From positions 1 to 59,405 of the IMG/VR virus record IMGVR_UViG_3300027881_000014: a DNA stretch of 59,405 bases. One strand, given 5' to 3'. Source of the stretch: a virus. Lineage: Duplodnaviria > Caudoviricetes. Each line of letters starts with the position of its first letter. The stretch's first letter is position 1. Shown here piece after piece: positions 1 through 55,200 of the stretch. Under the pieces are notes generated by a model that did not search any database, was not told where the DNA came from, and worked only from the letters and a program-made list of their open reading frames with translations. Made by a program: the position numbers and the translations under genes.

Positions 1-1764
1 TTCATCACGTGAACTAATACCAATTGAAATCCCGCTTTCTGTTACAAAGTCTTTAAAACCATTGATAAGTTGATAGTCACTAGGGAATTCCCAATAGTCT
101 ATTAAGAACCCTATATTAGCAGCTAGTAAATTTCCATCATAATCTTCTTGTGTAAATTCAAAATCTTCTACAGCTGATTCGGGACTAAGCAGATTAAACT
201 CCTTAACCATTTCATAATCAGCCTCATCTTTTATAGAATGGTAGAATCTTATTCTAGTAAGTCTCTTATTAATATCATGAGGTATTTTAATATTGTTAAT
301 CTTAATGCCATACTTATCTGTTGGCGTAACTTCATAATTATGTACGCTTGTTAAAATCTCTTCTCTTTCATCTAATACCATAGTAATAGCAATAGAAAAT
401 TTGTCATCGGTAGTTAACCAACCAATATCTCCTATTTCTAGATCACCACCATATTCAATACCAACTGCATACAAGTCAGCTATTGAAATAGAAAATGCTG
501 GGTCAGGCATATTTATTGTTGCATAACCTGAACCAGTAGGCCATTGTATCCACATCTTATCTGTGCCTGGAGTGGCCGCTACATAACTACCTACTGTGGA
601 CCATGCATTACCATTTGCTAATCTAAAAACTTCTCCCTGTTTACCAGTAAAATGTATATATGTATTAGCTAAATCTCCTGGTGCCAACGGTATGTCTCCT
701 GGTGGATTACCACCTGAGACACCTGTGCGAGTAGCATCAATAGTCCATAACCAAATATTAGGTATATCTGGATATGGCAGATCTGGATTATTTACACCTA
801 CTCCTGTATCTGTATCTGTAATATTAACTCTTAATGCTTTTACATTACCCAATGCTGGCTCCCACCTACCTAATTCATCAATAGGTGTACCAATAGTAAT
901 ATCTCTACCACCTACTACAGAAGTTTGATCTGTATTCAATTCGTAGTCATATATGATACCAAGACGCCTATCAAAAGCTTCATTACCTGTTACGCCGCCA
1001 TAAGCACGTGACGTGGCTAAAGTAGTATAACTTGGTAGATCAGGATAGGGAACTTGTGGTATGTTTAATGATCCATTAAAGTTAATAAATTGTTTGCTAT
1101 GATTCCATACATCTGTTATCCTATCTATATACCAATAATCACCTTCATAATCAAAATGAGTAGCAGAAGTGCTAACATCAGCAGTCCAAATTTTTCTATC
1201 AATCTTTCCCAACCAGAAAGTGTCGTGCGGGAAATAAAGTTTGAGTCTTCCATCTTCCACCTGAAAATGAACGGTGCCATCAATAGTGGTTGAAAAAAGA
1301 GAGTTGTCAAATGAGCTCCCATCATGATTATGAATATCAATAATACCCGCGCTATAGTTTCCATTTTTGGACATTTCATACCATATCGGCCCTCCTTCTG
1401 TAATGTCATATAAGTATACTAACCTATGATAAGTACCGCTGTCTGTTGCTTTTGCGATAAGTACCAAGACATCATGTTTGGAGGGAGTAGGATTATCCTG
1501 TGTAGTTAAGATATCAGAACTCAATGTTGTATAAATACCTGTTTCATACGTCCATGTATGAGCTGCAAAATCACCATTAGGATCTGGCAATCCAAAAGCA
1601 TTACCTGTATAAGGTAGTACGTCTGTCAAGTTTCTAGGATCTATCTCTAGATAACCTGGCCTATGTTTAAAATTCTTGCTATCTATTACTAATTCTAATT
1701 GATTATCATTTTCATCAGCATTAGAATAGATACCCTTAAAATCTTTTAATGTAATCTTTGGCAT
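1..1764 (-). CDS. Tail nozzle/stabilisation-type protein, N-terminal 588 codons (continues across the window end into 58828-59352; ~762 aa joined)
   Basis: Absent from the ORF track, but I read this frame stop-free from ATG 1764 (MPKITLKDFKGIYSNADEND...) to base 1. It ends ...FKDFVTESGISIGISSRDE, which matches the peptide at the other window end. Size and position after a ring protein fit a P22 gp10/T7 gp12-like nozzle (inference). Confidence 0.7.
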   Translation of the reverse strand, partial: MPKITLKDFKGIYSNADENDNQLELVIDSKNFKHRPGYLEIDPRNLTDVLPYTGNAFGLPDPNGDFAAHTWTYETGIYTTLSSDILTTQDNPTPSKHDVLVLIAKATDSGTYHRLVYLYDITEGGPIWYEMSKNGNYSAGIIDIHNHDGSSFDNSLFSTTIDGTVHFQVEDGRLKLYFPHDTFWLGKIDRKIWTADVSTSATHFDYEGDYWYIDRITDVWNHSKQFINFNGSLNIPQVPYPDLPSYTTLATSRAYGGVTGNEAFDRRLGIIYDYELNTDQTSVVGGRDITIGTPIDELGRWEPALGNVKALRVNITDTDTGVGVNNPDLPYPDIPNIWLWTIDATRTGVSGGNPPGDIPLAPGDLANTYIHFTGKQGEVFRLANGNAWSTVGSYVAATPGTDKMWIQWPTGSGYATINMPDPAFSISIADLYAVGIEYGGDLEIGDIGWLTTDDKFSIAITMVLDEREEILTSVHNYEVTPTDKYGIKINNIKIPHDINKRLTRIRFYHSIKDEADYEMVKEFNLLSPESAVEDFEFTQEDYDGNLLAANIGFLIDYWEFPSDYQLINGFKDFVTESGISIGISSRDE

Positions 1765-1765
1765 A

Positions 1766-2467
1766 TTAAACTGGGTACCATGGTGTTACTTCAATCCAGG
1801 GTCTTGAACGCTCTAAGTGACGTTCTTCAACCTCATCTCTTTTACGTGTATATACTTGTAATACTCTACCATACTTCTGAGCTTTTAATCCTTCGAATTG
1901 TGCAAGACCAAGTTTTGCCATATATCTGACAGCTTGTCGCACGGTTTCTTCAAAGTACTTGTTTGGGAGCACAGGTATTGCTTGGAGGTTTCCCTCATCA
2001 TCAAGCTCTTCATAATCTTCTTCACCTGCGATAGATGATGTATAGTAGATCGTAATCTCATCATCAAGCTCAGGGAAAGTATAATAAAGCTCACGCTGAT
2101 TAGCATTAAAAAGTATATGGTAAAAATAATTAGTGGATGCGGTAGAACTATTGGCATTATCTAAAACCTTTTCTAAACTTACTTCTTCATATAATGTCTC
2201 AGTCCCACCATCAGGTGTAACTGTGATTCTCCAAGCGCCATTAAAATTTAAGGGCTCAATAACTATTGGTGATGTACCAGTATCATCATTGGTAATGGTT
2301 ACACTACGTTCCATAACTCCATAGAGTTTAGCTATAGCCCTCTCGGCTCTATATACTGCTTGGGAGTATATATTACGAGGGAAGTCCTTAAACCAAGGAT
2401 CTCCGCATTTAAGTGCTACCTCTCCGATAGCTTCATTATTACTTATGTTTACAATTTGTGTGGGCAT
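1766..2467 (-). CDS. Putative head-tail adaptor/tail ring protein
   Basis: 233 aa, with helical N- and C-termini around a beta-rich middle (LYYTFP...ITIYY...PVLPNKYFEETV) typical of podovirus adaptor/ring proteins. Lies directly upstream of the nozzle. Confidence 0.55.
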   Translation of the reverse strand: MPTQIVNISNNEAIGEVALKCGDPWFKDFPRNIYSQAVYRAERAIAKLYGVMERSVTITNDDTGTSPIVIEPLNFNGAWRITVTPDGGTETLYEEVSLEKVLDNANSSTASTNYFYHILFNANQRELYYTFPELDDEITIYYTSSIAGEEDYEELDDEGNLQAIPVLPNKYFEETVRQAVRYMAKLGLAQFEGLKAQKYGRVLQVYTRKRDEVEERHLERSRPWIEVTPWYPV

Positions 2468-13187: not shown

Positions 13188-15188
13188 TTAACCTTGTTTG
13201 TTTTGTTGTTTACGCTTGGCTTCTGCATCTGATTTATCTTTGATCTGGGCTTTCGCCAATTCATCAGCCAATTTCAGTTTCGTCTCGAGTTCTGCAAACT
13301 TCTCACCAATCATTTGCTCTTTACTAGTCATCTCTTTGAGAATCCTATTTTCTAACGAGATGTTAATGAATTTATTTTCCATCTGTTTACTCGTTTCTAA
13401 GAGCCTATCATATGCAGCTTGCTGATCTTGAAGCTTTTGTTCAGCTCTTTTAACAGTATCAAGCTTCTGCATTAGTTCATCCCATTCCCTAACATCACTT
13501 AATTCCATTGCTTTCTGGGTTAAGATTTGTCTCTCTGAAGGATCAGGAGATGATTGTGCAATTTTTGCTAACTCTGTAGCTATAGCCAATCTTTGTGTTG
13601 GCATAGCAGTAGACGGTACACTCACTGTTAAAAACTTCATCGTTTTGATGTCGTTTGCAACGTCAAGCGCAATCTGCAACTCATTCAATTCGCCATTTTC
13701 ATCGAAGAATGAGAAACTATCAGGTGTCAAATGGGCTGCCATATACTCTATCATTACCTGTCCAAGTTCTTTCATTACTTGATTGATATGAGCTGATGAC
13801 ATTTTTACTCTCATCATAGCAGCACTTTGGTATTGCTGAAGGGAACTGAAGACTTCTACTCCGGCATCTTTAGCATTACCTTGTAGTATTGCATTGACTC
13901 CTGTAGAATACTCGATTCCTTGTTTCAGCATCTCTAATACGTTCGGATAGAAATTACTAAGTTTAGCAATACTATCACGCTCAGGCTTAAGAACTTGATT
14001 CTCATATACCTTTGGAACATATTCCTTTATAACTTTGGGGTTTGCTCCAAATTGTTCCCATTTCTCCCTATCTTCTTCTGCGATTGATCCCTTAGGAGCA
14101 TTCCAACCTGCATTATTAGATAGGATTCCATTAAGAATCATTATCTGCAAGACTTTATCAAAAGCCTGTTGCATACCCTTGGTGAAATGGATCATACCAT
14201 AACTACGATATGCTCTTCCACCCCATTCAAAAAAGGCCGTTCTTAACGGATAATCAGTTATAGGTAAGATCTCTTCCCATATAGTCCAATCACCCATTGC
14301 AATGGTCTTTTTTATGTAAATATCAGGAAGAACCTTATCAGCATTAGCTGTTATGGCCTCTCCCTCTAGCCCCAGATTTTCTTTAAAGAGCATCTGAACT
14401 AGTCCATTTTCCTTGACTAAATACATATCAGTAAAAACTTTTTCATAGTATTCACGAACGATAATTCTATCGTCAGCATTCCAATGAGAAGTAGTCACAT
14501 CTTGTTTTTCAGTAAGTTCTTGTTCAACCCATGTTTGCCCAGTAAGGCCCTTGATGTCAACCGGTGTACCATTATCATTTTTAAGTTGCGAGATGATACC
14601 ACCATAGACTTGTAGTGCCTTGGGTATAGTAAATGCTTTTTCAATAAAGAATCCCTCCATATCTTCAAGCGTTTTACTTTTAGCGTTAATATCAAGAATA
14701 ACTTCATCAAAGGGTACATGTGCAACCCGAAGGTTAAACATACCCTGTCTGTAGAAATCAACAGGTGAAACCATAATATGGCCCATTCCTGTTATTAGCA
14801 TTTCCTTGATCATTGATTCGATTTCTACAGAGGCATTAGAATTATACATAATTCCATGCTTCATTTTATCAAGTACAAATGCATGTTGCTTAGCCCTACC
14901 ATCTAAAGACAATGTCTTTACGGAGGGTTTGGTCTGGGTTAAGAGTGCTAATTTCTGGTTGGTAACGGGGTGCAGAAAGTTAATAGATACAGGAATATTT
15001 GTATTATCTGTTATCTTAGAAACTTGAGTGGAGGTATAAGTCGTACCGGTCTGATCTACATCGTTATAGTAGTATTCTTCTGACTCTTCTGCACGAGTGA
15101 GCCATTGTTTTCTACCCCAGGTTGTATCAGACTTCCAACTCACATACCTTTCACGAATGCGCTCAGGCACTCTCTGAAAGTTTATCAT
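13188..15188 (-). CDS. Portal protein (P22-like)
   Basis: 666 aa; W...AEESEEYYYN, P.SINFLHP, LITGMG, SYGMIHFTKGMQQAFDK, STGVNAILQG; C-terminal coiled-coil barrel. Confidence 0.85.
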   Translation of the reverse strand: MINFQRVPERIRERYVSWKSDTTWGRKQWLTRAEESEEYYYNDVDQTGTTYTSTQVSKITDNTNIPVSINFLHPVTNQKLALLTQTKPSVKTLSLDGRAKQHAFVLDKMKHGIMYNSNASVEIESMIKEMLITGMGHIMVSPVDFYRQGMFNLRVAHVPFDEVILDINAKSKTLEDMEGFFIEKAFTIPKALQVYGGIISQLKNDNGTPVDIKGLTGQTWVEQELTEKQDVTTSHWNADDRIIVREYYEKVFTDMYLVKENGLVQMLFKENLGLEGEAITANADKVLPDIYIKKTIAMGDWTIWEEILPITDYPLRTAFFEWGGRAYRSYGMIHFTKGMQQAFDKVLQIMILNGILSNNAGWNAPKGSIAEEDREKWEQFGANPKVIKEYVPKVYENQVLKPERDSIAKLSNFYPNVLEMLKQGIEYSTGVNAILQGNAKDAGVEVFSSLQQYQSAAMMRVKMSSAHINQVMKELGQVMIEYMAAHLTPDSFSFFDENGELNELQIALDVANDIKTMKFLTVSVPSTAMPTQRLAIATELAKIAQSSPDPSERQILTQKAMELSDVREWDELMQKLDTVKRAEQKLQDQQAAYDRLLETSKQMENKFINISLENRILKEMTSKEQMIGEKFAELETKLKLADELAKAQIKDKSDAEAKRKQQNKQG

Positions 15189-15231
15189 GTGGACAGTTCT
15201 TATTTATGCATAAAAAATGATCAAGATTTTG

Positions 15232-15260
15232 AATATACAAAATAAAACTGTCTTTGTCAA
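15232..15260 (-). promoter_or_regulatory. Sigma70-type promoter for the portal/late block
   Basis: Minus strand TTGACA-17 nt-TATATT, 44 nt upstream of the portal ATG and just downstream of a terminator. Confidence 0.75.
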
Positions 15261-15269
15261 GCTTTCTTT

Positions 15270-15303
15270 AAAAAAAGATGCCCCAGCACTAAGCCGAGAC
15301 ATC
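15270..15303 (-). terminator. Rho-independent terminator ending the replication block
   Basis: GATGTCTCGGC-TTAGT-GCTGGGGCATC followed by T7 on the minus strand. Confidence 0.8.
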
Positions 15304-15304
15304 A

Positions 15305-15940
15305 CCAGTAAGGGAGATTTGAGGACAAAAATAGTAGCCCGAATGGGACTTGCACCGCCATATAGTCGACTTCAAGACAGAAATTTAGGATTAGGCCATG
15401 TCGGCTACGCCGTGATGGTTTCTCTCCATATTTCAAGAGTAATACGTTACTATATAACATTCCTTGTCGAAGGGAATCATATCGTGAGGTTGAGCAGCCT
15501 CAGGTTCTAAGGATAAGTAGTTTCAAAAGTTTCTGGTTATACTTGTTTCTGTAGGTATAGAGTTTCCCTGCGCAGGGCTCCACTATACTAAGGTAGATTG
15601 AATTTAGTTCTCTACTGAGCCATTACGCTCTGTGTCATTAAACAACATTTTCTCACTGATCACCGCCGGTTATTTCTAACCCGTGGGTTTGGAGTAAGTC
15701 CATGCATTGGATATGCCTACCTATACAATTTTACTGATGCAGTACAAATGGCCATCCAATAGCCTCCTGCATTCATTCGTAAAATTCCATACTTACAGTC
15801 TTCACTATATCCCAATATCCGATCTATTAAACTATCGGGCCAACCCAGATAACCGGCTCTTTTGAGTCCCGGCACTGGTTGATCATGACTGAAGCGGAGG
15901 ATACGTCCTCCACGTTTTGCTTCTCATCTAAGAGAAGAAA
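15305..15940 (-). ncRNA. Candidate large structured ncRNA
   Basis: Gap with no credible ORF and many nested helices (e.g. 15665-15673/15849-15857, 15727-15742/15767-15786), complementary loops, and a T-loop-like GGTGCAAGTCC near the 3' end. Strand inferred from flanking genes and the terminator. Confidence 0.55.
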
Positions 15941-15942
15941 TA

Positions 15943-16623
15943 CTAAGTAATCCTGACTGACGCCGTTCTCTTTGTCGCCAATGCGGGATGAATTTCGGGA
16001 AGCTGAGAGACTTGCGCCTCTCGCTTTAAAATCTTGAACTCCGGAACCTTAGCTACGCTTGCTATTAGTTCTTTCCATGTTGCTTCCGTTAATTTTACCG
16101 TCACATTAATCAGGTCGTCATTAACCTGTTCTATGTCAACGATCTCTCGTCTCTCGCTTATATAAGGATGGAACGAGTATATATGACCACGAAGGGGAGA
16201 ACCCTCGCTCAAGCTATGCAATCTCTGTTTCAGCCGCGCGATGTTTCTCTGTATTCTGCCAGAGACACCAGAAATTCTCGCTGTGGCTTCCCGTTTGAGT
16301 TCTTTAATCTTGTCAAGCTCAGCCTCTAATTCGGTCATGACGTATCCGTATGCGTCGACTTTATCTTTGATAGCTAGTTCTTGATTCTGCCATATTAGAT
16401 CTTGATCGTTAGTAATTTCTCCGTCTTGATCTTCTATATCTGCTTGGAGACATAAATGATCATACAATAGCTCAGCTAACGTAATGGGATTACTCTTGCT
16501 CGTGAGTGAACCCGACTGGATTGCGCTTGACTTCAAGGGTCTGCTCGCCTCCAGGTTTGCTCCAGGCGTATTTGTCTGCGCCTTTTCCGTTTGCTTTGCC
16601 GATGAATTCGAATTGTGTTTCAT
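15943..16623 (-). CDS. Siphovirus Gp157-like protein (true start probably downstream of the ORF start)
   Basis: TLAELL...DGEIT...IKDKVDAYGYVM.ELEA....IK...RLKQRL pattern and C-terminal SVRI. Confidence 0.6.
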   Translation of the reverse strand: MKHNSNSSAKQTEKAQTNTPGANLEASRPLKSSAIQSGSLTSKSNPITLAELLYDHLCLQADIEDQDGEITNDQDLIWQNQELAIKDKVDAYGYVMTELEAELDKIKELKREATARISGVSGRIQRNIARLKQRLHSLSEGSPLRGHIYSFHPYISERREIVDIEQVNDDLINVTVKLTEATWKELIASVAKVPEFKILKREAQVSQLPEIHPALATKRTASVRIT

Positions 16624-29748: not shown

Positions 29749-29939
29749 GGGGCTGTAGCTCAGTCAGCGGATGATCCGTAATGATTAACCAAGATACTCG
29801 GCGACATAAGTACGTACAGTCGAGCCCTAACATTTACTCAGTCAGTACTTGATATGCATTAAGGTAAGTGATATCAACGGTGATATAGAGCGTCTGTTTT
29901 AGGAACAGAAGGTCGCGGGTTCAAATCCCGCCAGTCCCA
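29749..29939 (+). tRNA. Atypical tRNA-like RNA, anticodon UAG, with a 126-nt D-loop
   Basis: Acceptor GGGGCTG/CAGTCCC plus A; D-stem GCTC/GAGC; anticodon arm TCTGT-TTTAGGA-ACAGA; variable loop AGGTC; T-arm GCGGG-TTCAAAT-CCCGC. Confidence 0.7.
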
Positions 29940-33007: not shown

Positions 33008-33437
33008 GTTATGTAGTTCACCAAATGATTTCAAATTAAATGAAAAGGACAAACAAACAATTTTGAGCATAGTTAAATTATTCAACTTTACAATAGCCGA
33101 TGAACATCGAGGCATAGTAGGATATAGTGACTGGGCAATACCAGTTATCGTTAATCAAGAACCTGATATAAGGATAGTTGACCAAGGAGAGGGACTCACT
33201 GGTAATCAATCTGAGATATTCAGGACGGTTAAATACCAGATTTATAGCGATTTTCTATTAGCTGTATGGGATGGGCATGTAACAGATGTAATGTTAGTCT
33301 ATGCTGGGCTGATTCAAATAGGACATCAGGTAGAGGTACTACCTCGATTAAGTGATAAGAAATGTTATTCCTATGAAATGGCCAAGAAAGAGTATGATAA
33401 GAGATTACGAGGTAAGCATGATAAGAAGAAACCATGA
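32952..33437 (+). CDS. Hypothetical protein
   Basis: ORF with SD AGGAG in a co-oriented run. Confidence 0.5.
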   Translation: MKIITSHEIEKLVLRLYRKLCSSPNDFKLNEKDKQTILSIVKLFNFTIADEHRGIVGYSDWAIPVIVNQEPDIRIVDQGEGLTGNQSEIFRTVKYQIYSDFLLAVWDGHVTDVMLVYAGLIQIGHQVEVLPRLSDKKCYSYEMAKKEYDKRLRGKHDKKKP

Positions 33438-33903
33438 TGTCTATGTTATCTCTTATGGTATTAATGAATTTCCAGTAGGAAGAATTAAACAGGATACACT
33501 ATTTTTGGATAATCCATCCCGTCATAGACATACGATGAGTTATGGTATTGATAGAGAAGTTTTAACATCTGATGAGATGGATTTCCAATATATAATAATC
33601 CGAGAAAGAGGCAAAGATTGGACTACCTCTCGAAGCTTCTGGAAAGATTATGGTAAGATACAGGATTTAAACAATGGAAGAGTAGAATTATTCTTAGCAG
33701 ATGAATGGTATGGTGAAGAAATAACCATTCTCTACAAGAAAATTTTAGAGAACAAATGGTTACAATTTGATATATTTGACCTTGCTCATCACTCTGGTAG
33801 TTGGGATGGATTCTATAAAGTCTTACCCTATTGGGAAAAAGCTTATGAGCTCAAAGATGAGCTTAAAGAAAAATTGAACTATATCAGAAAGGTTGAATTA
33901 TGA
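33352..33903 (+). CDS. Hypothetical protein (start probably at MIRRNHD)
   Basis: ORF in a co-oriented run. Confidence 0.5.
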   Translation: MIRNVIPMKWPRKSMIRDYEVSMIRRNHDVYVISYGINEFPVGRIKQDTLFLDNPSRHRHTMSYGIDREVLTSDEMDFQYIIIRERGKDWTTSRSFWKDYGKIQDLNNGRVELFLADEWYGEEITILYKKILENKWLQFDIFDLAHHSGSWDGFYKVLPYWEKAYELKDELKEKLNYIRKVEL

Positions 33904-43210: not shown

Positions 43211-46200
43211 TTATTTAAATATTGTTTGCCATAAATTCTTACCCTTAAATAATCTATCCAAGAAAGGAACATAGGTAAATGGATCAGCTAACCATACAAG
43301 CCTAGACTTGGTATCATTAGTACCAAAACCTGTAAACCCTTTGTTATCTGTATCTACCTTCCGGCCATGAGCAAAAGACTTAGTTCTCCTACTCTCCACC
43401 CTTACATAAGGATGAGGGAATACATCTAAGTCAACTCCCCAATATAGCTTACGCTTTTGATATTGAGCGGCTCTGTTATCGGCTGATGTCCAACCCATTA
43501 TCTTTATACCTGTAGTAAAGTCATCGACTAACCAAGGTACATCTAAAAACTCTTTACTTCTTTTATCAGGAGCAGATTCAATAGCACCTAACTGATTAGC
43601 TGCATCCCACAATTGGTTATATACTCTCCATAAGAAATCAGGAGTATCATCTACTCTGCCCTTAAGAAATGTATCATCTAATCCTTTAGTAGGAACTGTA
43701 GCTATAGACTGCCATCCTAATTTCCAAAGCATACCCATAGGTAGCATTAGATCTTGTAATAACCATATTGCATTATCTCTATCATCCTCGTCATCAAAAT
43801 CAAATCCATTTTCCATTACATCAAATAAGAAGTCTAAAGCACCATAAGCTACTTGACCCATAGGATCTTGCATGTTAGTAAAACCATAGAATATACGAGT
43901 ACCAACATTCATCATGATACCAGTAAGTAAAACTTTATTTAAGATACCATGTAATAAGAGCACCTCTTTCATTGGTCCACCTGGACCTATAGTATTACCT
44001 TTTGCATCTGCAAACTTATTAATGTGATTCATCATAGTACGGATTTGTTTGATCTTAGCTACTTCTTCTGGTCTATTATGTGCTACCCTCAACATTTGAG
44101 GTATAGCATCTTTCATAATCTTTATAGCTTTAGCCATAGAGTTATACTGATACTGAGCATACTGATGGGTAATAGATCCCATCTTAGTATTAGCCCCAAA
44201 CTGTTTGTTAGCAGTACCATAGAATGCATGCCTTAATTCAACTGAGTTAACACCAAATTGTATGGCTTCTTCAGGAGTATAGCCAGCATCGATAGCTGTA
44301 TTATATCCTATAAAGAATGCTGGTATTCTAAGCTTCTCTGCCTTAGCCTGAAAGCCTAGTCCTACATTACCTGTAAAGAACTTCTTCCATGCTACACTAC
44401 CAGCTAATTTCATAACTTGCTGAGGTGTAATGCCTTGTTCTTGAGCTACATTCATAGTAGGTTTAACACCTGATTTAGCTAACTCATTAATCTTAGCCCA
44501 TAGGTTACGCTGATCATTATCACTTAAGTTAATCTTAGTATCTTTAAGTTGATCAAAAGTTACACCCTCCCATTTAAGTTTAAGTGCATTAACTTCAACC
44601 TGAATATTCATCCTAGTCACTTCATTTGTTGCTAGGTTAAACTTATGTTCTAATTCATCTAACTTTTTGCGTGTTGTTTCATACTTAGTAGCATCTTTAT
44701 ATAAATTAAATAAATATCTAATACCTTCTTTACTACTAAATTTAACTATCATGTCTTCTGGTCTAATATTAGCAGCTTCTAATGCAATAGCTAAGATATT
44801 ATCCCCAGTAAGACCAAGTCCCGTAAGCGTCTTATATAAATGTTGATCCTCTGGTAACATCGCATCAAGATCACCATGAGACATTCTTGCCCATATATCA
44901 TTACCTAATTTCCATTGTGCTTTATTATATCTAGGTGCATCTACTAAGTTATTTATAAATGCTCCTACTTGGTTGACTACTCTAGCCTTAATGGCTGCAC
45001 CCATACCCATAAAGAGTAAGCCTGTGCTTTTTTTCATCATACCTATTGCACCACTAGTTATACCTGCTGCTCCTTGTGCGAGCCTGTAATAGGACGTAGG
45101 CATTATACTTTCATACTCAGCTCCCATAAGCTGTATGTTACGTAGCCTATCTCTAGTAGCTTCTAATCTTTCAACCACACCCGTACCCGTATAGGCCATC
45201 ATAGCATTATGAACTGGTCTACCTGCTGGATCAGATGCATATAAATCTTTACGTTTGTGTCTTCCCATCAGGGATGGGTCTTTAGCTATCCGTTTAGAGG
45301 CCTTTACGATAGCCTCAGCGGCCTTAACAGAGGTTAGCCTAGCTAAGTTAACTCCTTTAAAATCTTCCTTCGTTAGGAAGCCTCTATTCAATAAATTCTG
45401 TATAACATTACGTTCACGTTGTGTGGCTTTATTTTGCTCTCTACCTGTTGCTAAGAGACCGGTGATAGTTTGGTTATAGCGTGCAATATCTTGCCTAGCT
45501 TCCCAACCCACCTTAGCAGCATCAACTACAAAGTGTACTTCATCTTTAGTTATCTTCTTAACTATACCTGAATGTTGTGCTGTACCCCATGAAGTTAAAG
45601 TATTATTAGGTTGTAGTATAGAGGTCTCTTTAGTAAAATGAACCTGTTGTCCTGGTTTAACATCTCCCCATGACATAACCTTAGATTTTAACTCTTTATC
45701 ACCTATTTGATTAGCATACCAATTACGTGTAAGTTCAATAACATTATTACGTTCACCTGCTAGTCTAGCATTACCCTGATACAATAACCAATCAGCTAAT
45801 AGACCATCTTTTGTTAATCCATCTATTAATTTCGTATTATAATTTAGATGTATATTAGGATCAGTCTTAGTATAATGAGTAGCATCAGGCATCTTACGTG
45901 GAATAAAGTTAGGTATAATGCTACCTGAATTCCAACCTGCTGATACTATATCCCATTGTTGCAATGCCCCTGTATGAGCAAGCTTTCTAATTTCATCTCT
46001 ATCCTTTGTAAGATCAAGTCTTGCTAAAGGGTTACCAGTATTATATTTTTGTGCAAATGCTATTTGTCTTTCAAGATCTTTAACAGCATGTCTTAGATAT
46101 CCCTTCATCCACATAGCTTTATATCTAGCTATAGGGAACTGATGAGGCATATAATTACCCTTAAATACTTCAACAGCCTGAAGCATTGCTCTATACTTGC

Positions 46201-49200
46201 GTATCATAGCATCTACTCTCAATGCTGAGTCTAAGTGTTGTGCGCCTTCCAGTTCTTCTCTTGTTCTTTCTAAGTACTCTAGTGCCTGCCTTAATATCAT
46301 GGGCACTTGTACGTCATACATTTCTCGTATGTCTATAGCGCCGATGAGTCCGAGCTTTTGTACTGGTGATAGCTTGCTAAAATGGTTATCTATTAGGTCA
46401 CTTACATTATCATATACATGTTCTTGACCCAGCGTTACTACATACTGCGTAACACCTTCTGCGTTTGGACGTACTGTAACTCTTTGTTTACTTGATAAGT
46501 CTTCAGCTAATGTAAATATTTGTTTACGTCTAGCTTCTAATAACATATCATCCTTATCAGTTACTTGATTTACTAAGTTAGATATTAAACGCGTACGAGC
46601 AGTATGTTCAATGTGTGTCTTCTCTGATGCTACTGAAGCATATTCAGATGCCCACTTTCTTCTGAATTGATTATGCGATAGTATCTGAGTAATAGTATCA
46701 TATCTTTTAACCTGATTCGTAAGAGTAACTTGATGCGTAGACAATGCCCTATGCATAGCCTGTGATTTATTCTTAGTTATAGAACTCTCGCCCATGGTAA
46801 TGAATGAACGTATAGCATGAGTAAGTCTTGATATTCTTACATCTTCTCCTGTCTGATCAGTTACGCCTTGTTCATTCCAAACAAATGATATAACATCATC
46901 TTTAGGAGAGAACACTCTAGTTAATTTTTCTGATAGTTCAGTAACTAAGTCATAACCTATAATATTAGAACCTATCCTACGCATAAACGTAAGATTCTTA
47001 TTACGTGCACCTTCTCTTTTCCTTACAGCAGTAAAAAGATAATACATCTCTATGATAGTACCTTTTAGTAACTTATTACTAGGATCTTCTCCTATATTTT
47101 GCCTTAAGAATGTTTCAATAATATTACTACCTTCATATTTATCTACAGCAATAGCAATATGAGTTGTATCTACATCTTTATATTTCTTTTGAAACTCTGC
47201 ATCACTCAATTGGGTAACGTCTTTTACTAAGTCTTTATAAAATACACCATTTTCAGATAGAGCCTTAATAGTAAGCGTATTTTGCAATAACTTCTTCAAT
47301 TGCTCTCTGCCATGCTGCCAATCCTTACCTATCATAGACTTATAAAACTTTCTAAAGCTAGGATCTTTAGCTACCTTAGCATGTTCATTAACATAGTCCA
47401 TAAAGAAATGCTTAAAAGTATGTTCAGGACTTTCTACATGAGCATCTTCATATATCATATCTACGTTAGCATCAACACCATCTTGTAAGACTTGATTAGT
47501 CTTTTGTTGATCTTGAGGGCTACGTTGTGCATTCACATGAGAGTATAGTTGCATCCACAAGTTCATTAGTTGAGGCTCAAACTGAGCCATAAGACTTAAT
47601 GCTATATGGTTGCTCTGATATCTAAATGGTTTTGCTGGATCATATGCTGACTGATTCACTATAAAGCCAGTAGCCTTACGTTCTAACATTCCTTGATCAC
47701 TTGTCTGGGCTAAGAGCCCTAACCAGAATGCTACTTGATCATCAGTAGTAAATTTCCTTGTACCATATAGGTTCTCAGCTAGATACGCTTCAAGTATTCT
47801 CTGTCTCGTATCCATATTTAAATTTCTTGGGAGTTTAAGAAGACTAGACATCTGCACTCTATTAAAAGTACCTTCAGACTTGTTTTCTACGCCTTCCCAT
47901 AGGCCATTTTCTTCGGTCAATAGTCTACGAAGAAGATCAGCTCCTTCACTAGTGCTTTTATTAATCTCTGTATGGGTATACTTTTTCTTATTAAGCAAGA
48001 ATACAAGTTTACCAGCACCATCAGACTTGACTCCTATTCTCTTACCACGAAAGACAAGTGCTATAGGGGCAACATTATCTTGTAAGAATAAGAAGTTTTG
48101 ATTTAATATATCTTTCCACAAGATTGGATATGTTTTAGCATGAGCCTCTCTCGTAATTCTTAATTGTTCTGATACACCTTTTGCATCTTCTTGTTCAAAA
48201 GTTTCATCAAAAGCATGTAATATGCTATTAGCTTCTGCTCTAACACTTCTTAATTGATTATGCCAATAAGCTTTAGTCTTGTCATTACCTTCTTGTAATC
48301 TACCTTCAAAAAAATCTGCTGATCTAGGCATTAAGGATAATGAAATAGCATCGCTATCAACATGTATTTGTCTACCATCTCTCTGGAACGGAGTAAAAGC
48401 ATTACCTACTCTAGCATCTACTTCTTTAAAATCAATAATAGCATCTTTAAGATCTTGTTGTGATGCAGCCGATAGCTTAGCTCTAAGCTTCTCAAAGTGT
48501 GCCGTATTCTTTAACATAGCTCTTACATCCTCTACAGGATTTTTGCTACTAGTACGCATTAAACTTAATATTCTTTGAGCTGGTTTATAAGCTATGCGTT
48601 TACCAATTTTAAAAACATTTGCACCTTGACTAGGTTTATGGGAAGTAACATCATCCCACATAGACTTCACAGCTGGGTAGTATGGTAGGGCTCCTGTAGA
48701 GGCTAATACTTGGTTGATCAAATGATCCTTGTAAGTATTCCCAGGCATATCACGCAGCATCTCCGCTGCATTGACATTGCGAATCATGTTGAATAATGGG
48801 TAAGCATAGACGTCATCAACTTCCATCTTGCTTACGAAGCTTTGTAAGAACGCATATCTTTGCTTAAGTACTAAGAGACCAGCTTTATAATCTTTGGTAT
48901 TCTTAAAGTACTTACGTTCTAATTGTGTCTTCCCATCATTAATATATTGATCAACAAGAGATAAAAGTCCTTGCTTATCATTACGAGCAAGTACATCTAA
49001 CTTATGTTGTGCCTTACGTAATTGCTGTAAGGTTTCATAATAATCTAATTTCTCAAAGGTCTCTGGGTTACGTTGCCGTGCTAAGTTAAATGCCTCAGCA
49101 AATAACAAGTTCTGGAATCCTTTTAAAGTAGTATACATATTATCTGTATTAGTAAACTTACCTTGAGTTTTATCCATAGCTTGTATTGCTACTGAATCAT

Positions 49201-52200
49201 TCAGTCCCCAGAAATGTGCACCCATCTTTCTTTTATATATTGCTGATTTAGGATTAGAATTATAAGCTAATCTAGTAGTCTTATTGGGGAAATCTACCTC
49301 AGCATTTGTCATATTTAAGTGATGGACATGTAGTCTTAGCCATTTGCTATTACGTACATTAAAGTTTTCTTTAAATTCTACCCATCTACCCCCTGGTTTT
49401 ACCCTGGTTATCAGCTTACCTGTCTTAGTAATGTAAGGTATAACCACATCCTTAGCTCTCATATTCATAGTAGAAAGAGCTGTGTGTAATATTCTTTCAT
49501 TTATAATAGGAGCTGGATCATGTAAATAGTTAGAATCAAGTGCAATAAATGAATCTCCCATAATGGAAAACTTATTCCTTTGACCTTCTACAGCACCATT
49601 CATTAAGATACTATATGTCTGCCTCATCGTTTCGCTTTGGAAGACGCTATCTTCCGTAACAGGTATCTCTTCACCTGCAGCATCTTTAACTACCGTGCCA
49701 TGCTCTGCGAATAATTTCTTTGTTTCAGAAGCAACTCCCTTTGCATATACACTAGGTAGTTTGCTAGCTATATCAGTAAGAGCATTAAAATTATCTGGTG
49801 TCCAAAATCTAGGATCATAAGGGATGATAGATATATTATCTATATCAAAATCTTTTCCAACAAGGGTCTGTATCCATTCTGAATTGAATGTAGCCTTGCC
49901 ATTATCAGATACTTTTCTACCACCTGCTTTGCTCTCCTTTGACTTAACTATACCAGCTACCCTTACACCAATAACACCTAATGGTGAATCAGTAGGAGTA
50001 ACTACTGCCATTACCTTGTCACCTGGCTTAATGCCGTGACGTTCGGCAATGTCTTCTGTAATTAAAGTCCAACCTTTGTTAAGTCTACCAGTTTTAAAGT
50101 TAATAATACCATTAGTCTGACGTATTAACTCATGAGTAACTGGATCTACTTTATGTGTACCCCATACAACTTCATCTCTCCATGTAGTTACATCTTTATT
50201 GGCCCAGTTAATAGCTGAATGAGGTGCAATATCAGATATCTCTTTACGTTCTGACTCTATGTCCGCAAGAGCTAATACCTTTTCTTCGCCCTGCAATTGT
50301 GTATGAGCTCGTTGTTCTCTCCTTTGCAATTCTATTAAATGTTTAGCATCTTTTCTGCTCTGTGTAGTATGCGCAGCAGCAGCTACTTTCTTAGGTACAG
50401 GCATATTAATCAATATATTACCTAAGTTCCAACTACCTAGAATAGGATCTATATCTTTTTGCCAGTTAGCATAACCTATATTAGGATCAAGTACAGCTCT
50501 ATTACCTGCTGTCTTACCACCTAGCATTTGGCTAAGCTTATGTTGCATCCTATTACGTAATACTTCTGCTGTATGAGCATGTTGAAAGAAACCTGCATAT
50601 CTACGTAAGATAGTGGCCTCTGTTTCATTAGCCTTAGGCTCAATAACATCAATCCATATATTAGATACTGACTGCTCTTGAGGTGACTTAGGATTATATA
50701 CTACATCTTTAAGTAAAGTATACATAGCTGCAGGAGTAGTATTATCTGCAAACCATTGTTTAGTTTCTGATGCCATAGCATTAGAGAAGTCTGTCATAAT
50801 CTTACTAAGCTTAGGTCCACCTATATCCTTAATAAATTGATTATACAGCTCACTAAATGCTGTACCACCCATAAGCTGTTTAACACTACCACCCATGGGA
50901 TCTTTAAATTCTGACTCACTAATACGTGAGAATTGACTCATCTTTAATGGTATGATAGGATCAGCAGCTACAAAGTCTGGGTTACTCATAAGTTCAAGAG
51001 CACCCACAACCCTAACCTTAGGACCTTCTTTCATAGCTTCATCTGCTGTCATAACTGCTACATTATTTCTGATCATCATTTGACCTAATGCAGAGTCCTT
51101 ATGTACACCATGCATAGCATGCTTAATGAATAAAGGATCTTGACCAGCACGTGAACTATATAAGTTCTTGATAGTACCATCTTTAAGGACAGCATGAGCT
51201 AGGTTATAAGCCTTATCAAAATGTCCTATAATATAGAAAGAAGCACCATCTATAGTAGATGTATTAAGTTCATTCTTAAATGCTTCGCTTAATTTTATCT
51301 CTCTAGTTACACCATCTGGTGTCTTAAATGTAATAAGGTTATTATCAAAGCTATTTACAACCATAGCGTTAACAGCTATATCACCCTCAACAAATTCAAT
51401 ACCATTAACAGCAGCATCACCAAATGCTTGCTCAATATCTGCTTCATCTATAACAATACCAGTATCTTGAGCCATCCATTTAGTACCACGCTTTTGTATT
51501 TTATTCCAATCTTTAGCAGCTTGACTTTCATTAGAAAACCATATTTGTTCTAATAAAGCTCTTGAAGTAGCTGACATTTGCTGTGGTTCACCATAAGGAT
51601 TCTTCTCATCAGAAGTACCAAAATCTTCTTGGAACTCTTGAAAGGCTTCTTTTTCATAAACCTTTTGAAATTCTTGTAGTGCTGCTTTAATCTGTACTCT
51701 ATACTCACTATTAAATGTTAAGATTGGTACAGTGTTGGCACCAGCAAATGAACCTAGATACAACATACCTTCTTTAGATGCTCTAGTTATAGGGGCTGAC
51801 CATAAAACTTCTGATATATAGCCCGTAACAGGCCCAGCATGCTTAGGATCAACATTAAAGAATGTAGAATTTAACCTTTCTAAACTACTCCGATTGGTAA
51901 CTTTATCATCTTTCCAAGTTTCAAAACCTTCTATATAAGCAATCTTTAATGAGCCTTTAGGCATCTTTAATTGCTCTTCTAAGAGAGGAAGATAACCTTC
52001 TAATGCTGTCTTACGTCTAAATGTATTTCTCTTCTTACCATTACCATCTCGGTATACGCCCTCAACTTTGCGCAGCTCCAAACGATAATCCGTTTCCCCA
52101 CTATTAGGATCACGCTGATGGACACCCATAACAACATAACCAACTTTAGCCTCCTTCATCATCACATTAAGAAATGCTCTTTTTAAGAATACCTTTCTAA

Positions 52201-55200
52201 ACTGTGCGACAGTTTTATGTATACCACCTTTATAGTTAAAATACAAATGCTCTATCTTCTTATTAATGATATTACGATGAGCTTTATCTAACAGATCCAT
52301 ATCAGTTTGAAAATCGTCAAAACCTGTCTCGCCAGCATAGCGACCACGCATGATCTTTCTATACTCACCCTCAGGCATGCCATTTAATTCAGAAGCTATA
52401 GCAATAAAATTCTCTATGTTGCCATTCTCTGCCTTATTTTCATTTTCATTTGATATATCATCAGGATCTTGCATTTTATCTAATAGTTCATCCTGATCAC
52501 TATCTTCTGCATATTCTGTAGTCTCATAGCCAGAGGTTACATTCTTTTGTATCCGTAAGTTTTCTTTGGCTATCCTAGCACTCCACTCTTTATCTCTACC
52601 CTTATTAAAATCACTAATCTTTCTATTATGATCCTCTAAGATACTCTGTAGTTGTAGAGTAGCAGACTTCTTAATACCTAAGTTCTCAAGTGATTGTCTA
52701 ATAGCTCTCCAGATAGCTCTCCAACCTGTTATTGGCTTATGAATACCGCCTACATTAACCCTATCAGTAATAAACTTGATAGCCTGCGTATCTGATAAAA
52801 CTGCTGTAATAAATTCTTCTTCGCTAAGGAATGATTTCTTGATTAACTTAATGTTTTGGCTAATCCATTGCTGAAGTTCGGCTTTATCTCCTAGATAGCG
52901 TTGTGTAAATAATGTACCCTTGCCCTTAGAGTTGATAACACTACGTACAGTTTGCATGATAGATCTAATCTGACGATTAAATTCTTTAGCTGATACTGTA
53001 TCTGAATTCATATATCTACCAAGATAACTATGAAGCATCTCATGTACGGTAGTATCCCATACTGAGTGATTGTTCCATAGAGTAGCATTAGGATTAATGA
53101 ATATATTACCTGAAGCTTTTTCAGTAGCACCTGGATGTTCAGCTTCCATAGGCTTAATGCCTATCTTAACATCACCTACTTGTTCTAATAGATTATCTAC
53201 TACTTCTTGTGTAAGGGGATTTTGAAAACCTCTGCTAGTAAGATACTCTATCATATCTTTAACAGTATTCCCCTTAAAACCTGCAGTTACTTCATCATAT
53301 GTAGGCATGCCAAAGGTAGCATCTGGTATATTCGTAGTCTCAAAAGTAAAACCACCCGCAAGGTTAGCGTCTGCCACACCCTCTGTATGTGATTCTCCTC
53401 CTAAACCTGTAATTGCATCTGTTTCTGTTCTAGTATGGAAGTTACCACGATTATCTATAAATCCATCTTCTACCCTACCATCATCTAGGGTTATATCACT
53501 TGGAAAACCACCTGCATCAGTAATATCTTGTAACAGCTGTACATGTATTTGACCTGGCTTACCTTTCCAAACCTTACCATCAATCCGCTCGCCTACGGCT
53601 ACCATTTTCAGATTACTTCTCATACTCTGAACTGTGGTTTGTGCTAGCTTCATTGCTAAGCTTTTGGATTCCATTTGAAATTCGCCACCAGACATTGGAT
53701 CAAAGAATGATACGGCTAAGTTATCTCCAAATTGTGTAACACCTTTAAATTCAATACCTAATAATCCAGACATTGCCTGGGCCTTGTCAACTACACTTGC
53801 AGCTGTCGGTGCATCCTGTAACTCAAAGTCTTCATCTGTCACCCAACCAAAGTCATCAGCATCATCCGATTTGGTCTTGAAATTGCCATTCTCATCGAAG
53901 CCTTGGAATTGGCTACCATCAACGTCTTCCATTACTTCATTACCTAGCACAGTGCCTACCTGAGCGATGGCTAGACCTATATTTTCCTCAACGCCAAGTT
54001 GATAAGTCTTCTTGGCTTGAGCTTGTATCTTGTTTAATGATTGAGACTGCCCCTCTTTAGTAAACTTAGTTTTAGGAATCTCAATTTCTAAATTTGAATT
54101 TTGTAAATCTTGAGCTTGTGAGATAATCTTTTTAATTTCAGGATTACCCTGATGTCTATGAAATAAGTATCCATAGCTAGTCTCATCAAAGTCTAAAGCA
54201 ACAGCGAGGTTTAAGTCTTTCTTTAGTTGCGCATTATCACCAGCAATAGCTGCTATCTTTTGATCTAAACCAGTTGTAGCTATATACTTATCAATACCAT
54301 GTATAGCTCCTTCCATGATAGCATGTGATGTTTCTTGATCAGCCTTAAATAAATAACTGTCCACCTCATATGATATATGATTCTTGTCTTTAGTCTTATT
54401 ATCTTTAATGCTTTCCTTAGTATCTCTCTGAGATAAAGCAGACAATAACATTTGAGTTTCTCTCTTACCATGTTCAAAGACAAAGTCTAAAACATTAGCA
54501 CGAGGCAAACTATTAACAGACTCAAGAGTACCTGCTATAATATAGCTTTCTCTCTTATCTACTTCTTGTTTAGCTACTTCATCTGCTGAAGTTTCTACTA
54601 ATGGATTGCTTTTACCAGTTCCCTGGTCTAAAATTACTTTAGCTGTTTCGCCTTCTTGACTAACGTCTACGTCAGCTTTCTTTTCTAAACTCTCTTCAAC
54701 TTTTTCTTTGATTGGGTCAAGTTTTTCTCCACCCAAGAGTTGTTCTAACTCACGTGCAGCTGCTTTTCCATATTGCTTTTCATAATCTTCAAGAGGCTTC
54801 TTTGTCCAGATATTACCTACTTGAAATGTACTTCCTAATACGGTACCAACTGCTATTTCTACTACTAAGTTTCGATAGGCTTCTCTTGCTTGATCATCAT
54901 CACCGAAAGCTATCCATATAGCAGATCCATGACCACCTTCAACTATATCATTAAAAGCATCAGTAACCTGCTCTGTAGCAGTTTCTATGATAGCACCTGA
55001 GAATAAAGTTCTACCAGTATTCTTTAGTAATTCTTTAGCTATAAGTTTTCTATCTGCTTGTAATGATGCCAATCCTCTTTTAAGAGCTTCTATATTCTTG
55101 GGAATCTTAGAGTTCTTAATCATAGATTTCAATTGAGTAGATGTTAACCTAAGTGATTTCTTAGTTCCATCTTTACCTAATACGGTTACAGTTTTGCCAA

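Follow-up and report, generated by a model that had tools for sequence, protein, structure and literature searches.

A probable glutamate-type tRNA gene with two large structured insertions, conserved upstream of the portal gene in related phages

We analyzed the complete 59,405-bp record IMGVR_UViG_3300027881_000014 of a virus of the class Caudoviricetes (hereafter, the window) and describe here a 754-nt gap (positions 15189-15942), a stretch present once in the window, that is flanked by two minus-strand genes. The minus strand of this gap very probably encodes a glutamate-type transfer RNA (tRNA) gene that consists of a complete tRNA-Glu frame and two structured insertions, one in the D-loop and the other in the 5' strand of the T-stem. 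At least 14 phage lineages have kept the locus, which escapes standard tRNA and Rfam searches; there is a substantial chance that it represents a new class of RNA or a new splicing system. Comparison of the sequences leads us to lean, with somewhat less than even confidence, towards a product that retains both insertions and does not decode.

A tRNA-Glu frame split by two insertions

The predicted cloverleaf was followed through 14 distinct homologs and comprises 21 pairs, with 292 of the 294 cells paired and up to five pair types per position; the frames of the homologs were chosen by a pairing-maximizing script, which somewhat favours the structure. The acceptor stem joins UCGGGCU, located after the T-loop and three further nucleotides and before AC, to GGCCCGA approximately 500 nt upstream. 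All seven pairs of this stem are formed in all 14 homologs, with two to five pair types per position and compensatory changes such as GACCCGU/ACGGGUU in L003, GGCCCAA/UUGGGCU in L002 and GGCCUCC/GGAGGCC in L023 (homologous loci are denoted by L numbers throughout). An earlier interpretation of the window, made without homologs (the sequence-only reading), had instead drawn TCGGGCT with the nearby GUAGCCGA, which is not the partner that covaries. The D-stem is formed by GUUU, which follows UA, and GAAC from an invariant GAGAAC block 320 nt downstream, a pairing found in 14/14 homologs and including G10-C25 and U13.G22. The hairpin after GAAC is the anticodon arm, with a loop that ends in CUC-AA and a stem whose five pairs are kept in all 14 homologs with three to four pair types per position. 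In the T-stem, positions 49-51 covary with 63-65 (AUG/CAU, GCG/CGC, GCA/UGC, GUG/CAC, ACG/CGU and GGG/CCC), and because positions 49-51 pair with the bases that follow the CC of the T-loop, the stem is split between 51 and 52. A local T-stem with bulges works for the window and L002 only, and the split T-stem is preferred. The T-loop-like motif noticed in the sequence-only reading is real (GGTGCAAGTCC in the window and GGTTCGAATCC in most relatives) and belongs to this split T-arm.

An independent count was made on a tool-generated alignment of seven sequences with 44 pairs, with shuffles and slid partners as controls. Paired cells amounted to 96.3%, compared with 82.5% in the shuffles and at most 57.9% with slid partners; 23 of the 44 pairs were changed on both sides (mean of 10.0 in the shuffles, at most 8 with slid partners); and the covariation score was 0.487, against 0.196 in the shuffles, none of 500 of which scored as high, and at most 0.145 with slid partners. 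In this count, the acceptor stem was 100% paired, and all five pairs of the anticodon stem were changed on both sides.

Deletion of both insertions in silico resulted in a tRNA call by ARAGORN for all eight sequences analyzed, compared with none of the eight intact sequences, none of 16 sequences with a single insertion deleted, and 13 of 800 sequences in which two segments of matching length were deleted at random. Three of the eight calls are tRNA-Glu(CUC); in the other five, the loop has 8 nt and the 'anticodon' four bases. The frame thus differs from a contiguous gene of ~70-95 nt: it spans 507 nt from position 1 to position 73, and tRNA finders miss the intact form.

Beyond the stems, U8, U11-A24, U13.G22, A37-A38, a variable loop of 4 nt and A73-C74 are each present in 14/14 homologs; the anticodon is CUC in 13 homologs and UUC in one, and CCA is fully encoded in L005 only. 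All elements of what we take to be the E. coli-type tRNA-Glu identity set, namely, U11-A24, U13.G22, the missing nucleotide 47 and a YUC anticodon, are present in the homologs. The anticodon loop is of the canonical 7-nt size in seven homologs and has 8 nt in six, including the window, two of which lack the U before the anticodon; the remaining homolog, L012, has a hairpin in this loop. The D-loop and the T-loop change together, in that all nine homologs with U55 have GG in the D-loop and all five with G55 (the window, L023, L012, L020 and L004) lack it and have AGA or GUG in the D-loop, a pattern that fits selection on a folded elbow. In this D-loop/T-loop type, the window sides with distant relatives, though its portal is closest to those of L007 and L013.

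The folding of the gap is consistent with these observations. The minus strand has a minimum free energy (MFE) of -197.8 kcal/mol (z = -4.14), with none of 20 shuffles as good, and the fold of the plus strand is no better than shuffles (z = -1.44). The large structured non-coding RNA of the sequence-only reading is borne out by this folding score and by covariation in the homologs, and the strand, which that reading left unstated, is the minus strand. A protein-coding gap, the outcome that the same reading had named as speaking against it, was rejected, the gap having no minus-strand open reading frame (ORF) of at least 60 amino acids (aa). Small proteins encoded at the position of the gap in distant relatives show no similarity to it (best E 0.56), and the matches of a 102-aa ORF of L007, in L003 and L002, are no better than chance.

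No match was found at the locus by cmscan against Rfam at the gathering thresholds, the sole match in the window being to a tRNA elsewhere, and the four matches obtained for positions 15100-16050 at E<=10 are at chance level and far below their cut-offs. The sequence-only reading had suggested a comparison with GOLLD, ROOL, OLE, group I and II introns and RNase P; the covariance models of these families, as well as those of raiA, HEARO, phi29 pRNA, transfer-messenger RNA (tmRNA) and small ribozymes, gave no match, E<=10 included, so that the RNA is not a recognizable member of any of them. Neither blastn with the gap nor tblastn with the portal gave a match in a phage database. Thus, the proposal that the RNA belongs to a GOLLD/ROOL-like class or to a new one holds in part: this is a large phage RNA with a long-range pseudoknot and without an Rfam family, but it is not free-standing, its frame being a tRNA-Glu-type cloverleaf. 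The coordinates of the features are given in Table 1.

Table 1. Features of the split tRNA frame and its surroundings in the window, and tRNA-related elements of locus L023 (core position p corresponds to window coordinate 15842-p)
Feature	Coordinates	Strand	Remarks
Upstream neighbour, 226-aa ORF	15943-16623	(-)	stop codon at 15943
Hairpin GGAGGA/UCCUCC	15896..15911	(-)	just past the stop of the 226-aa gene, start of the leader; MFE fold
Leader hairpin CCGG..CUC-AAAA-GAG..CCGG	15853..15872	(-)	~10 nt before the tRNA 5' end
Leader UCUGG	15845..15849	(-)	tentative pairing with CCAGA in insertion 1 (15532..15536)
Acceptor 5' strand GGCCCGA	15835..15841	(-)	G1 = 15841; pairs with 15336..15342
U8, A9, D-stem 5' strand GUUU (15829..15832), 5' part of D-loop (15821..15828)	15821..15834	(-)	
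Insertion 1	15511..15820	(-)	310 nt; in the D-loop before A21
UUA, D-stem 3' strand GAAC (15504..15507), position 26, anticodon arm	15485..15510	(-)	
Anticodon arm	15485..15502	(-)	stem UGAGG/CCUCA; 8-nt loop CUGCUCAA; CUC 15492..15494
Variable loop	15481..15484	(-)	4 nt
T-stem positions 49-51, AUG	15478..15480	(-)	pair with CAU 15343..15345 (63-65)
Insertion 2	15357..15477	(-)	121 nt; in the T-stem 5' strand between 51 and 52
G52, G53, T-loop UGCAAGU (15348-15354), 61-65, acceptor 3' strand UCGGGCU	15336..15356	(-)	G at 55
A73	15335	(-)	
C74	15334	(-)	
3' trailer	15304..15333	(-)	conserved motif GUCCUC-AAAUCUCC, in two alignments
Intrinsic terminator	15277..15303	(-)	end of the RNA's transcript; 11-bp stem, 6 G-C pairs, T7 run
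Sigma-70-like promoter TTGACA-17-TATATT of the portal operon	15232..15260	(-)	11/12 matches
Downstream neighbour, P22-like portal gene	13188-15188	(-)	PF16510, E 1.7e-33
L023, short form of the RNA	1243-1595		
L023, acceptor/T-arm 'minihelix' RNA	1603-1693		91 nt; CCA encoded, no recognizable D or anticodon arm
L023, normal tRNA-Ile(GAU)	2159-2234		
L023, T-arm-like fragment	~2262-2290		

Structure of the insertions

Insertion 1 is closed in the window by the helix GGAUA/UAUCC, which covaries in the homologs (GGAUGA/UCAUCC, GAGUG/CAUUC, GAAUA/UGUUC and AAGUGC/GCGCUU). Within it, a long hairpin (15727..15786) with conserved internal loops has a similar fold in 7/7 homologs and includes two helices of the sequence-only reading, AATTTTAC/GTAAAATT and TGCAG/CTGCA, which are present and covary, as do the hairpins CCCTG/CAGGG and TGAGG/CCTCA listed in the same reading; the GGAGGA/TCCTCC hairpin is found in the sequence and in the MFE fold. 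The apical loop AUUGGAU (15754..15760) pairs with AUCCAAU (15706..15712), just past the junction helix, to form a pseudoknot. This interaction, recognized in the sequence-only reading as a 7-bp kissing loop, is real and covaries: all seven full-length homologs keep it, with own-sequence Watson-Crick runs of 7, 7, 7, 5, 5, 7 and 7, compared with an average of 4.0 and at most 6 in the 42 cross-sequence controls. The pairing sequences differ between lineages (UUGAAAU/AUUUCAA, GUUAAUC/GAUUAAC, UUAGAAG/CUUCUAA, GCUAAGA/UCUUAGC, CUACC/GGUAG and UGGAA/UUCCA). Covariation in the seven-sequence count also extends to the junction helix, formed between 15716..15722 and 15591..15597, and to a hairpin (15555..15588) whose U-GCGC-A loop is invariant. 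Two other helices that had been proposed from the window, GCCGGTTAT/ATAACCGGC and GTAGCCGA/TCGGGCTAC, are seen in the window only, the other six homologs being at the cross-sequence background, and the postulated 3' domain GTAGCCGA...TCGGGCTAC is accordingly not conserved.

Insertion 1 also contains two segments that might contact the tRNA frame and its leader. The motif UUGGG (15811..15815) is complementary to the anticodon loop CUCAA, with which it may tentatively be paired; UUGAG in L012 and UUGGG in L020 are located at the corresponding place, so that this element is common to the short form (L020) and the long forms. The motif CCAGA (15532..15536) is another tentative case, its potential partner being the leader UCUGG just 5' of G1. 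Upstream of the frame, an equivalent of the two-step leader hairpin was recognized by eye in 6/7 homologs, with different sequences (CGUG/CACG, CCCG/CGGG, CCC/GGG and others).

Insertion 2 starts with the covarying hairpin AUUCC/GGAAU (15459..15477), and its remainder is variable; L005, L009 and L010 lack this insertion altogether. The sizes form a continuum, with 39-325 nt for the D-loop together with insertion 1 and 0-293 nt for insertion 2. In a contig from a different seawater run, position 15356 is followed directly by 15434; the 77 nt that are skipped (15357-15433) belong to insertion 2 and hold the window-only GTAGCCGA helix. A pairing of the insertion-2 hairpin loop GACAA with UUGUC of the trailer was seen by eye in some homologs only and was dropped. 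In L012:2860-3297 (also in L021 and L025), there is a third insertion, a 16-nt hairpin in the anticodon loop, which is missing in the close relative L020.

Homologs and genomic context

Related portal genes were collected at 11 loci from viral contigs and 21 loci from metagenome contigs. A search with nhmmer, using the gap of the window and then a profile, identified homologs directly upstream of the portal gene in L007/L019, L013, L002/L016, L003/L018, L014, L015 and L017; the contig of L014 ends upstream of a complete tRNA frame, so that the 5' end of this homolog is truncated, and L017 includes the 3' part only. The portals of these homologs are 74-80% identical to that of the window. Their alignments show short invariant blocks that alternate with segments of variable length, a pattern indicative of a structured RNA rather than a gene. 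The gap is shorter in more distant relatives and is followed by an ORF of 147-177 aa, the products of which are unrelated to the gap of the window. A scan for a T-loop combined with an acceptor complement and U8 identified further versions of the RNA, 103-451 nt in length, at the same locus of more distant relatives, namely, L023, L012/L021/L025, L020, L004/L024, L005/L006, L009 and L010. In all 14 distinct homologs, the RNA is syntenic, upstream of related portal genes. Contig names of the relatives point to sediment and subsurface metagenomes.

Additional searches were less productive. A pattern scan of viral contigs with GGGNTGRCCCRNTAGTTTA gave 12 stretches, of which three are known homologs and nine are unrelated beyond the motif, and no relatives were found by a pattern scan with the flanking 226-aa protein. 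Among five seawater runs, none recorded as RNA was listed as containing the sequence. Four DNA runs yielded fragmentary contigs only, from the strain of the window and from related ones, and none of these was an allele free of the insertions. A portal-profile scan of one genome per prokaryote species found no prophage.

On the minus strand, the stop codon at 15943 is followed by the gap with the terminator and the promoter, and then by the portal start at 15188. The intrinsic terminator, with its 11-bp stem and T7, is the strong terminator that the sequence-only reading had placed at the boundary of the gap, and the alignments show that a hairpin and a T-run are kept at this position in relatives. 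The promoter of the portal operon is outside the RNA, marks its boundary and is kept in 4/4 aligned relatives. A AACTGTCC motif directly before the portal start codon is conserved, as is the portal promoter (15189-15260), and no obvious Shine-Dalgarno sequence was seen at the portal start of the window. The upstream 226-aa protein has a weak PHROG match, 'Mu Gam-like end protection' (E 1e-5), and no Pfam family. The minus strand showed no promoter-like site between 15942 and the RNA, which is therefore probably transcribed as the tail of the upstream replication/recombination operon.

Other genes in the window encode a DnaB-family helicase, an exonuclease, the large terminase and an uninterrupted tRNA-Arg(ACG). 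The phage appears to be bacterial, judging from the tRNA-Arg(ACG), the DnaB helicase, the sigma-70-like promoter and the AAGGA ribosome-binding sites in relatives; tRNA-Arg with A34, to which tRNA-Arg(ACG) belongs, is presumably a bacterial and eukaryal feature. Among the 13,806 codons of the ORFs counted, 885 are Glu codons, with 282 GAG vs 603 GAA.

Retention or removal of the insertions

Under the scenario that we tentatively put forward, transcription from the upstream operon would halt at the terminator, and both insertions would stay in the mature RNA as expansion domains, resulting in a 'giant tRNA' of ~510-600 nt. The core of this molecule would be an L-shaped tRNA-Glu body recognizable by RNase P, the CCA-adding enzyme and Glu-tRNA synthetase, and given that the core retains what we take to be the Glu identity features, these tRNA enzymes probably act on it. 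Insertion 1 would fold back on the tRNA, with UUGGG directed to the anticodon loop CUCAA and CCAGA to the 5' leader. The arm in the T-stem and the 8-nt anticodon loop of six of the 14 members suggest that ribosomal decoding probably does not occur. The RNA could mimic tRNA-Glu or be a functional RNA built on a tRNA scaffold, for example, a decoy or sponge for a host factor that binds tRNA-Glu or a stable carrier for the insertion-1 domain. In its fullest form, the proposal, to which we would assign not quite an even chance, is a class of giant tRNAs with a possibly glutamylated core, a 310-nt D-loop domain that clamps the anticodon loop and the 5' leader of the same molecule, and a second arm projecting from the T-stem; marine and sediment phages would use these RNAs as a decoy, sensor or ribozyme. 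Retention of the insertions is favoured by the size continuum with shared elements, by the joint change of the D-loop GG and U55, and by the conservation of the leader hairpin and the trailer beyond the tRNA ends; furthermore, the junctions lack an archaeal splice motif and a group I signature, the insertion in L010 is only a 31-nt hairpin and hence cannot be a ribozyme, and the 8-nt anticodon loops would not be repaired by splicing.

Several observations weigh against retention in a non-decoding product. The putative contact between UUGGG and the anticodon loop involves mostly invariant bases, three of its four pairs never varying, and the contact between CCAGA and the leader, with five pairs, is paired in 85.7% of the cells, with one pair changed on both sides. 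The 16-nt hairpin in the anticodon loop of L012 is more intron-like than expansion-like, and the Glu anticodon, A37-A38, the Glu-type D-arm and the variable loop would be expected of a spliced, decoding tRNA as well. That an arm at 51/52 would obstruct EF-Tu is a presumption from general structural knowledge. Finally, in view of the tRNA 'introns' of Lak megaphages, phage tRNAs may undergo splicing.

The principal competing explanation is that the locus is an interrupted tRNA gene, the introns of which are excised and the exons ligated to yield a normal-sized tRNA-Glu(CUC) for GAG codons, through a new splicing activity that could reside, for example, in an insertion-1 ribozyme or in an unrecognized phage or host enzyme. 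We consider this explanation somewhat unlikely on balance. In its favour, removal of the insertions restores a textbook cloverleaf in 8/8 sequences, the Glu anticodon and A37-A38 are kept in 14/14, GAG is well used in the phage (282 GAG vs 603 GAA, as given above), and the presence of the insertions varies, insertion 2 being absent in L005, L009 and L010 and an extra anticodon-loop hairpin being present in L012. Insertion 1, with its conserved unpaired motifs and pseudoknot, is ribozyme-like, and its segment complementary to the anticodon loop has a parallel in eukaryal and archaeal pre-tRNAs. Passages of the report on Lak megaphages (PMC6784885) offer a precedent for phage tRNA introns, the mechanism of which is not known. 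Nevertheless, no group I, group II or small-ribozyme match was obtained at E<=10, and the nucleotide at the position of the would-be group I terminal G varies (GA, UUA, A, GC, CA). A group I intron in a tRNA was, accordingly, rejected, there being no match to RF00028 at E<=10, no conserved 3'-terminal G, and insertion sites in the D-loop and the T-stem. A strict bulge-helix-bulge (BHB) motif, defined as a 4-bp helix flanked by 3-nt bulges and located no more than 10 nt to either side of the boundaries, is found at one of the eight junction pairs for each insertion vs 128 of 800 random pairs, a random rate of 16%. The 31-60-nt insertions of L010, L005, L009 and L023 are too small for self-splicing, and the 8-nt anticodon loops (6/14) would persist after splicing. 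Among the 23 proteins scanned in this phage, most of whose proteins are unannotated, there is no convincing RNA ligase or splicing endonuclease; the candidate examined, a 183-aa ORF (33352-33903), was rejected as an RNA ligase given a sub-threshold score for PF09414 (21.2 bits vs the cutoff of 27), no PHROG match and no relative of solved structure. Bacterial introns of a new type, located in the D-loop and the T-stem and either self-splicing or spliced by an enzyme, would be as novel as a giant tRNA.

Bacteria also excise RNA without religation, as in the intervening sequences (IVS) of some 23S rRNAs and in two-piece tmRNAs, and a host double-strand RNase might similarly remove the insertions, leaving a tRNA of two or three fragments that its stems would keep together. 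The helix that closes each insertion right at the insertion point fits such processing, as do the intact, covarying flanking stems (the D-stem, 49-51/63-65 and the acceptor), which could hold the pieces together. The closing helices, of ~5 bp, are short for RNase III, however, and we know of no natural precedent for a three-piece tRNA, no search having been made for one; altogether, we regard this route as improbable. Even less probable is an archaeal virus whose tRNA gene contains ordinary, protein-spliced BHB introns outside the canonical position, of the kind known from Thermoproteales, DPANN or Asgard archaea. According to a recent preprint (bioRxiv 10.64898/2026.10.13.758758), certain archaea commonly have several introns in the D-arm and the T-arm; the relatives, by contig names only, come from sediment and subsurface. 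Conversely, strict BHB motifs are not enriched at the junctions in the test described above, for which our own script was used without a positive control, and on inspection, the geometry is wrong, with the 5' boundary located 5' of the closing helix. Moreover, the tRNA-Arg(ACG), the DnaB-family helicase, the TTGACA-17-TATATT promoter and the AAGGA sites in relatives are bacterial features, and the insertions, 240-315 nt in length with conserved cores, greatly exceed archaeal tRNA introns of typical size. We give hardly any credence to a non-functional locus, that is, a tRNA gene disrupted by inserted DNA, an attachment-site scar or a pseudo-tRNA, with accidental structure. T-arm-like fragments nearby in relatives (in the L002 leader and at 2262-2290 of L023) are possible attachment-site remnants, but in 14 lineages, the two strands of each stem are linked across the insertions by compensatory changes, which is not expected of a recombination scar; furthermore, the insertions themselves covary, and the locus is syntenic in all relatives. 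Identification of the RNA as a tmRNA was rejected as well: an anticodon arm is present, pair 3-70 is C-G, ARAGORN reports no tmRNA, and there is no Rfam tmRNA match at E<=10.

A bolder idea, which we hold to be very unlikely, is that the forms with 8-nt anticodon loops decode four-base codons. In 10/10 cases (the window, where the overlap is at 16490-16623 (-), L002-L005, L007, L009, L010, L013 and L015), the pair of genes immediately upstream of the RNA shares 104-152 nt, the downstream gene being in the +1 frame. An in-frame GAGC (the window, L007 and L013) or GAGG (L015) within the overlap matches the four-base anticodon in four of the five testable 8-nt-loop members; L005 has no match, and L014, being cut, is outside the testable set. 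The simple reading is a plain overlap, the downstream gene having its own ATG, often after AAGGA.

Comparison with known systems

Given that tRNAs are among the most size-constrained RNAs, domains of up to ~315 and 293 nt that emanate from the D-loop and the T-stem of a frame under clear selection imply either a new route of tRNA splicing in bacteria or the use of the tRNA fold as a chassis for a larger RNA. The latter is the inverse of GOLLD with embedded tRNAs: passages of a cryo-EM preprint on these RNAs place GOLLD and ROOL near tRNA islands, with tRNAs sometimes located in the GOLLD linker (10.1101/2024.12.08.627333), whereas here, in the opposite topology, the large RNA is inside the tRNA, and there is no Rfam sequence or structure match to either family. 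The resemblance to tmRNA (SsrA) consists in a tRNA-like acceptor/T-loop module around several hundred nucleotides of structured, pseudoknotted RNA that is likely to be processed by tRNA enzymes. Unlike tmRNA, the RNA described here has a D-stem, a complete anticodon arm that carries a Glu anticodon, and two separate insertions, and lacks G3.U70; no tag reading frame was identified in it.

The multi-intron tRNA genes of archaea similarly contain several intervening sequences per gene, including the D-arm and the T-arm, and are missed by standard finders, but the insertions described here have no BHB motif at the boundaries, are 5-10 times longer with conserved folded cores, and occur in a phage with bacterial-type features. 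Bacterial group I introns in tRNAs are, likewise, structured, pseudoknotted RNAs that are a few hundred nucleotides long and interrupt tRNA genes of the bacterial type. The known ones sit in the anticodon loop; in contrast, the RNA of the window shows no match to RF00028, no conserved terminal G and a different helix topology. Similarly to the IVS of 23S rRNA and to rRNA expansion segments, the insertions are helical domains of variable size at fixed points, closed by a helix at the insertion point, the difference being that the host molecule is a tRNA.

Among phages, a parallel is offered by the 'enigmatic' tRNA introns of Lak megaphages, which, in passages of Devoto et al. 2019 (PMC6784885), are described as previously unreported for phage tRNAs. 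Here, too, phage tRNA genes contain intervening sequences of unknown mechanism; according to the same passages, the Lak introns were found with the eukaryote settings of tRNAscan-SE, that is, at the anticodon-loop position, unlike the D-loop and T-stem sites in the 59-kb phage analyzed here, where the structure of the insertions covaries. A 2014 review, in the passages pertinent here, states that all phage introns seen until then were in protein-coding genes, despite the many phage tRNA genes (PMC3984707), and passages of a review of non-canonical tRNAs (PMC7609411) mention no large D-loop or T-stem insertion. In text searches of the literature, phage tRNAs with domains in the D-loop or the T-stem were not found to be described, which is not proof of absence, and we found no earlier report of the two-insertion arrangement in viruses of bacteria.

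Other tRNA-related elements

The window contains a second interrupted tRNA gene (29749-29939, plus strand), with the acceptor GGGGCUG/CAGUCCC, an intact T-arm and a D-loop insertion of ~115 nt. ARAGORN misses the intact form of this gene; upon deletion of the insertion, a short-variable-loop tRNA with the anticodon UAG is called in 70 of 208 deletion variants. The only Rfam match in the window (29879-29939) is the 3' part of this gene. Considering that the RNA in 14 lineages and this second gene are not called by standard tRNA finders and Rfam, inventories of phage tRNAs may be incomplete.

Four tRNA-related elements are located upstream of the portal gene in L023:1100-2520 (Table 1). The leader of the RNA in L002 (1850-1880) includes a perfect T-arm, GUAGG-UUCGAAU-CCUAC, without a matching 5' half, which may be a tRNA remnant or an attachment-site fragment. 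In L013:1953-2354, an inserted ORF of 133 aa separates the RNA from the portal promoter. Elsewhere in the window, a single ORF of 4,349 aa (43211-56260, minus strand) occupies more than one-fifth of the genome.

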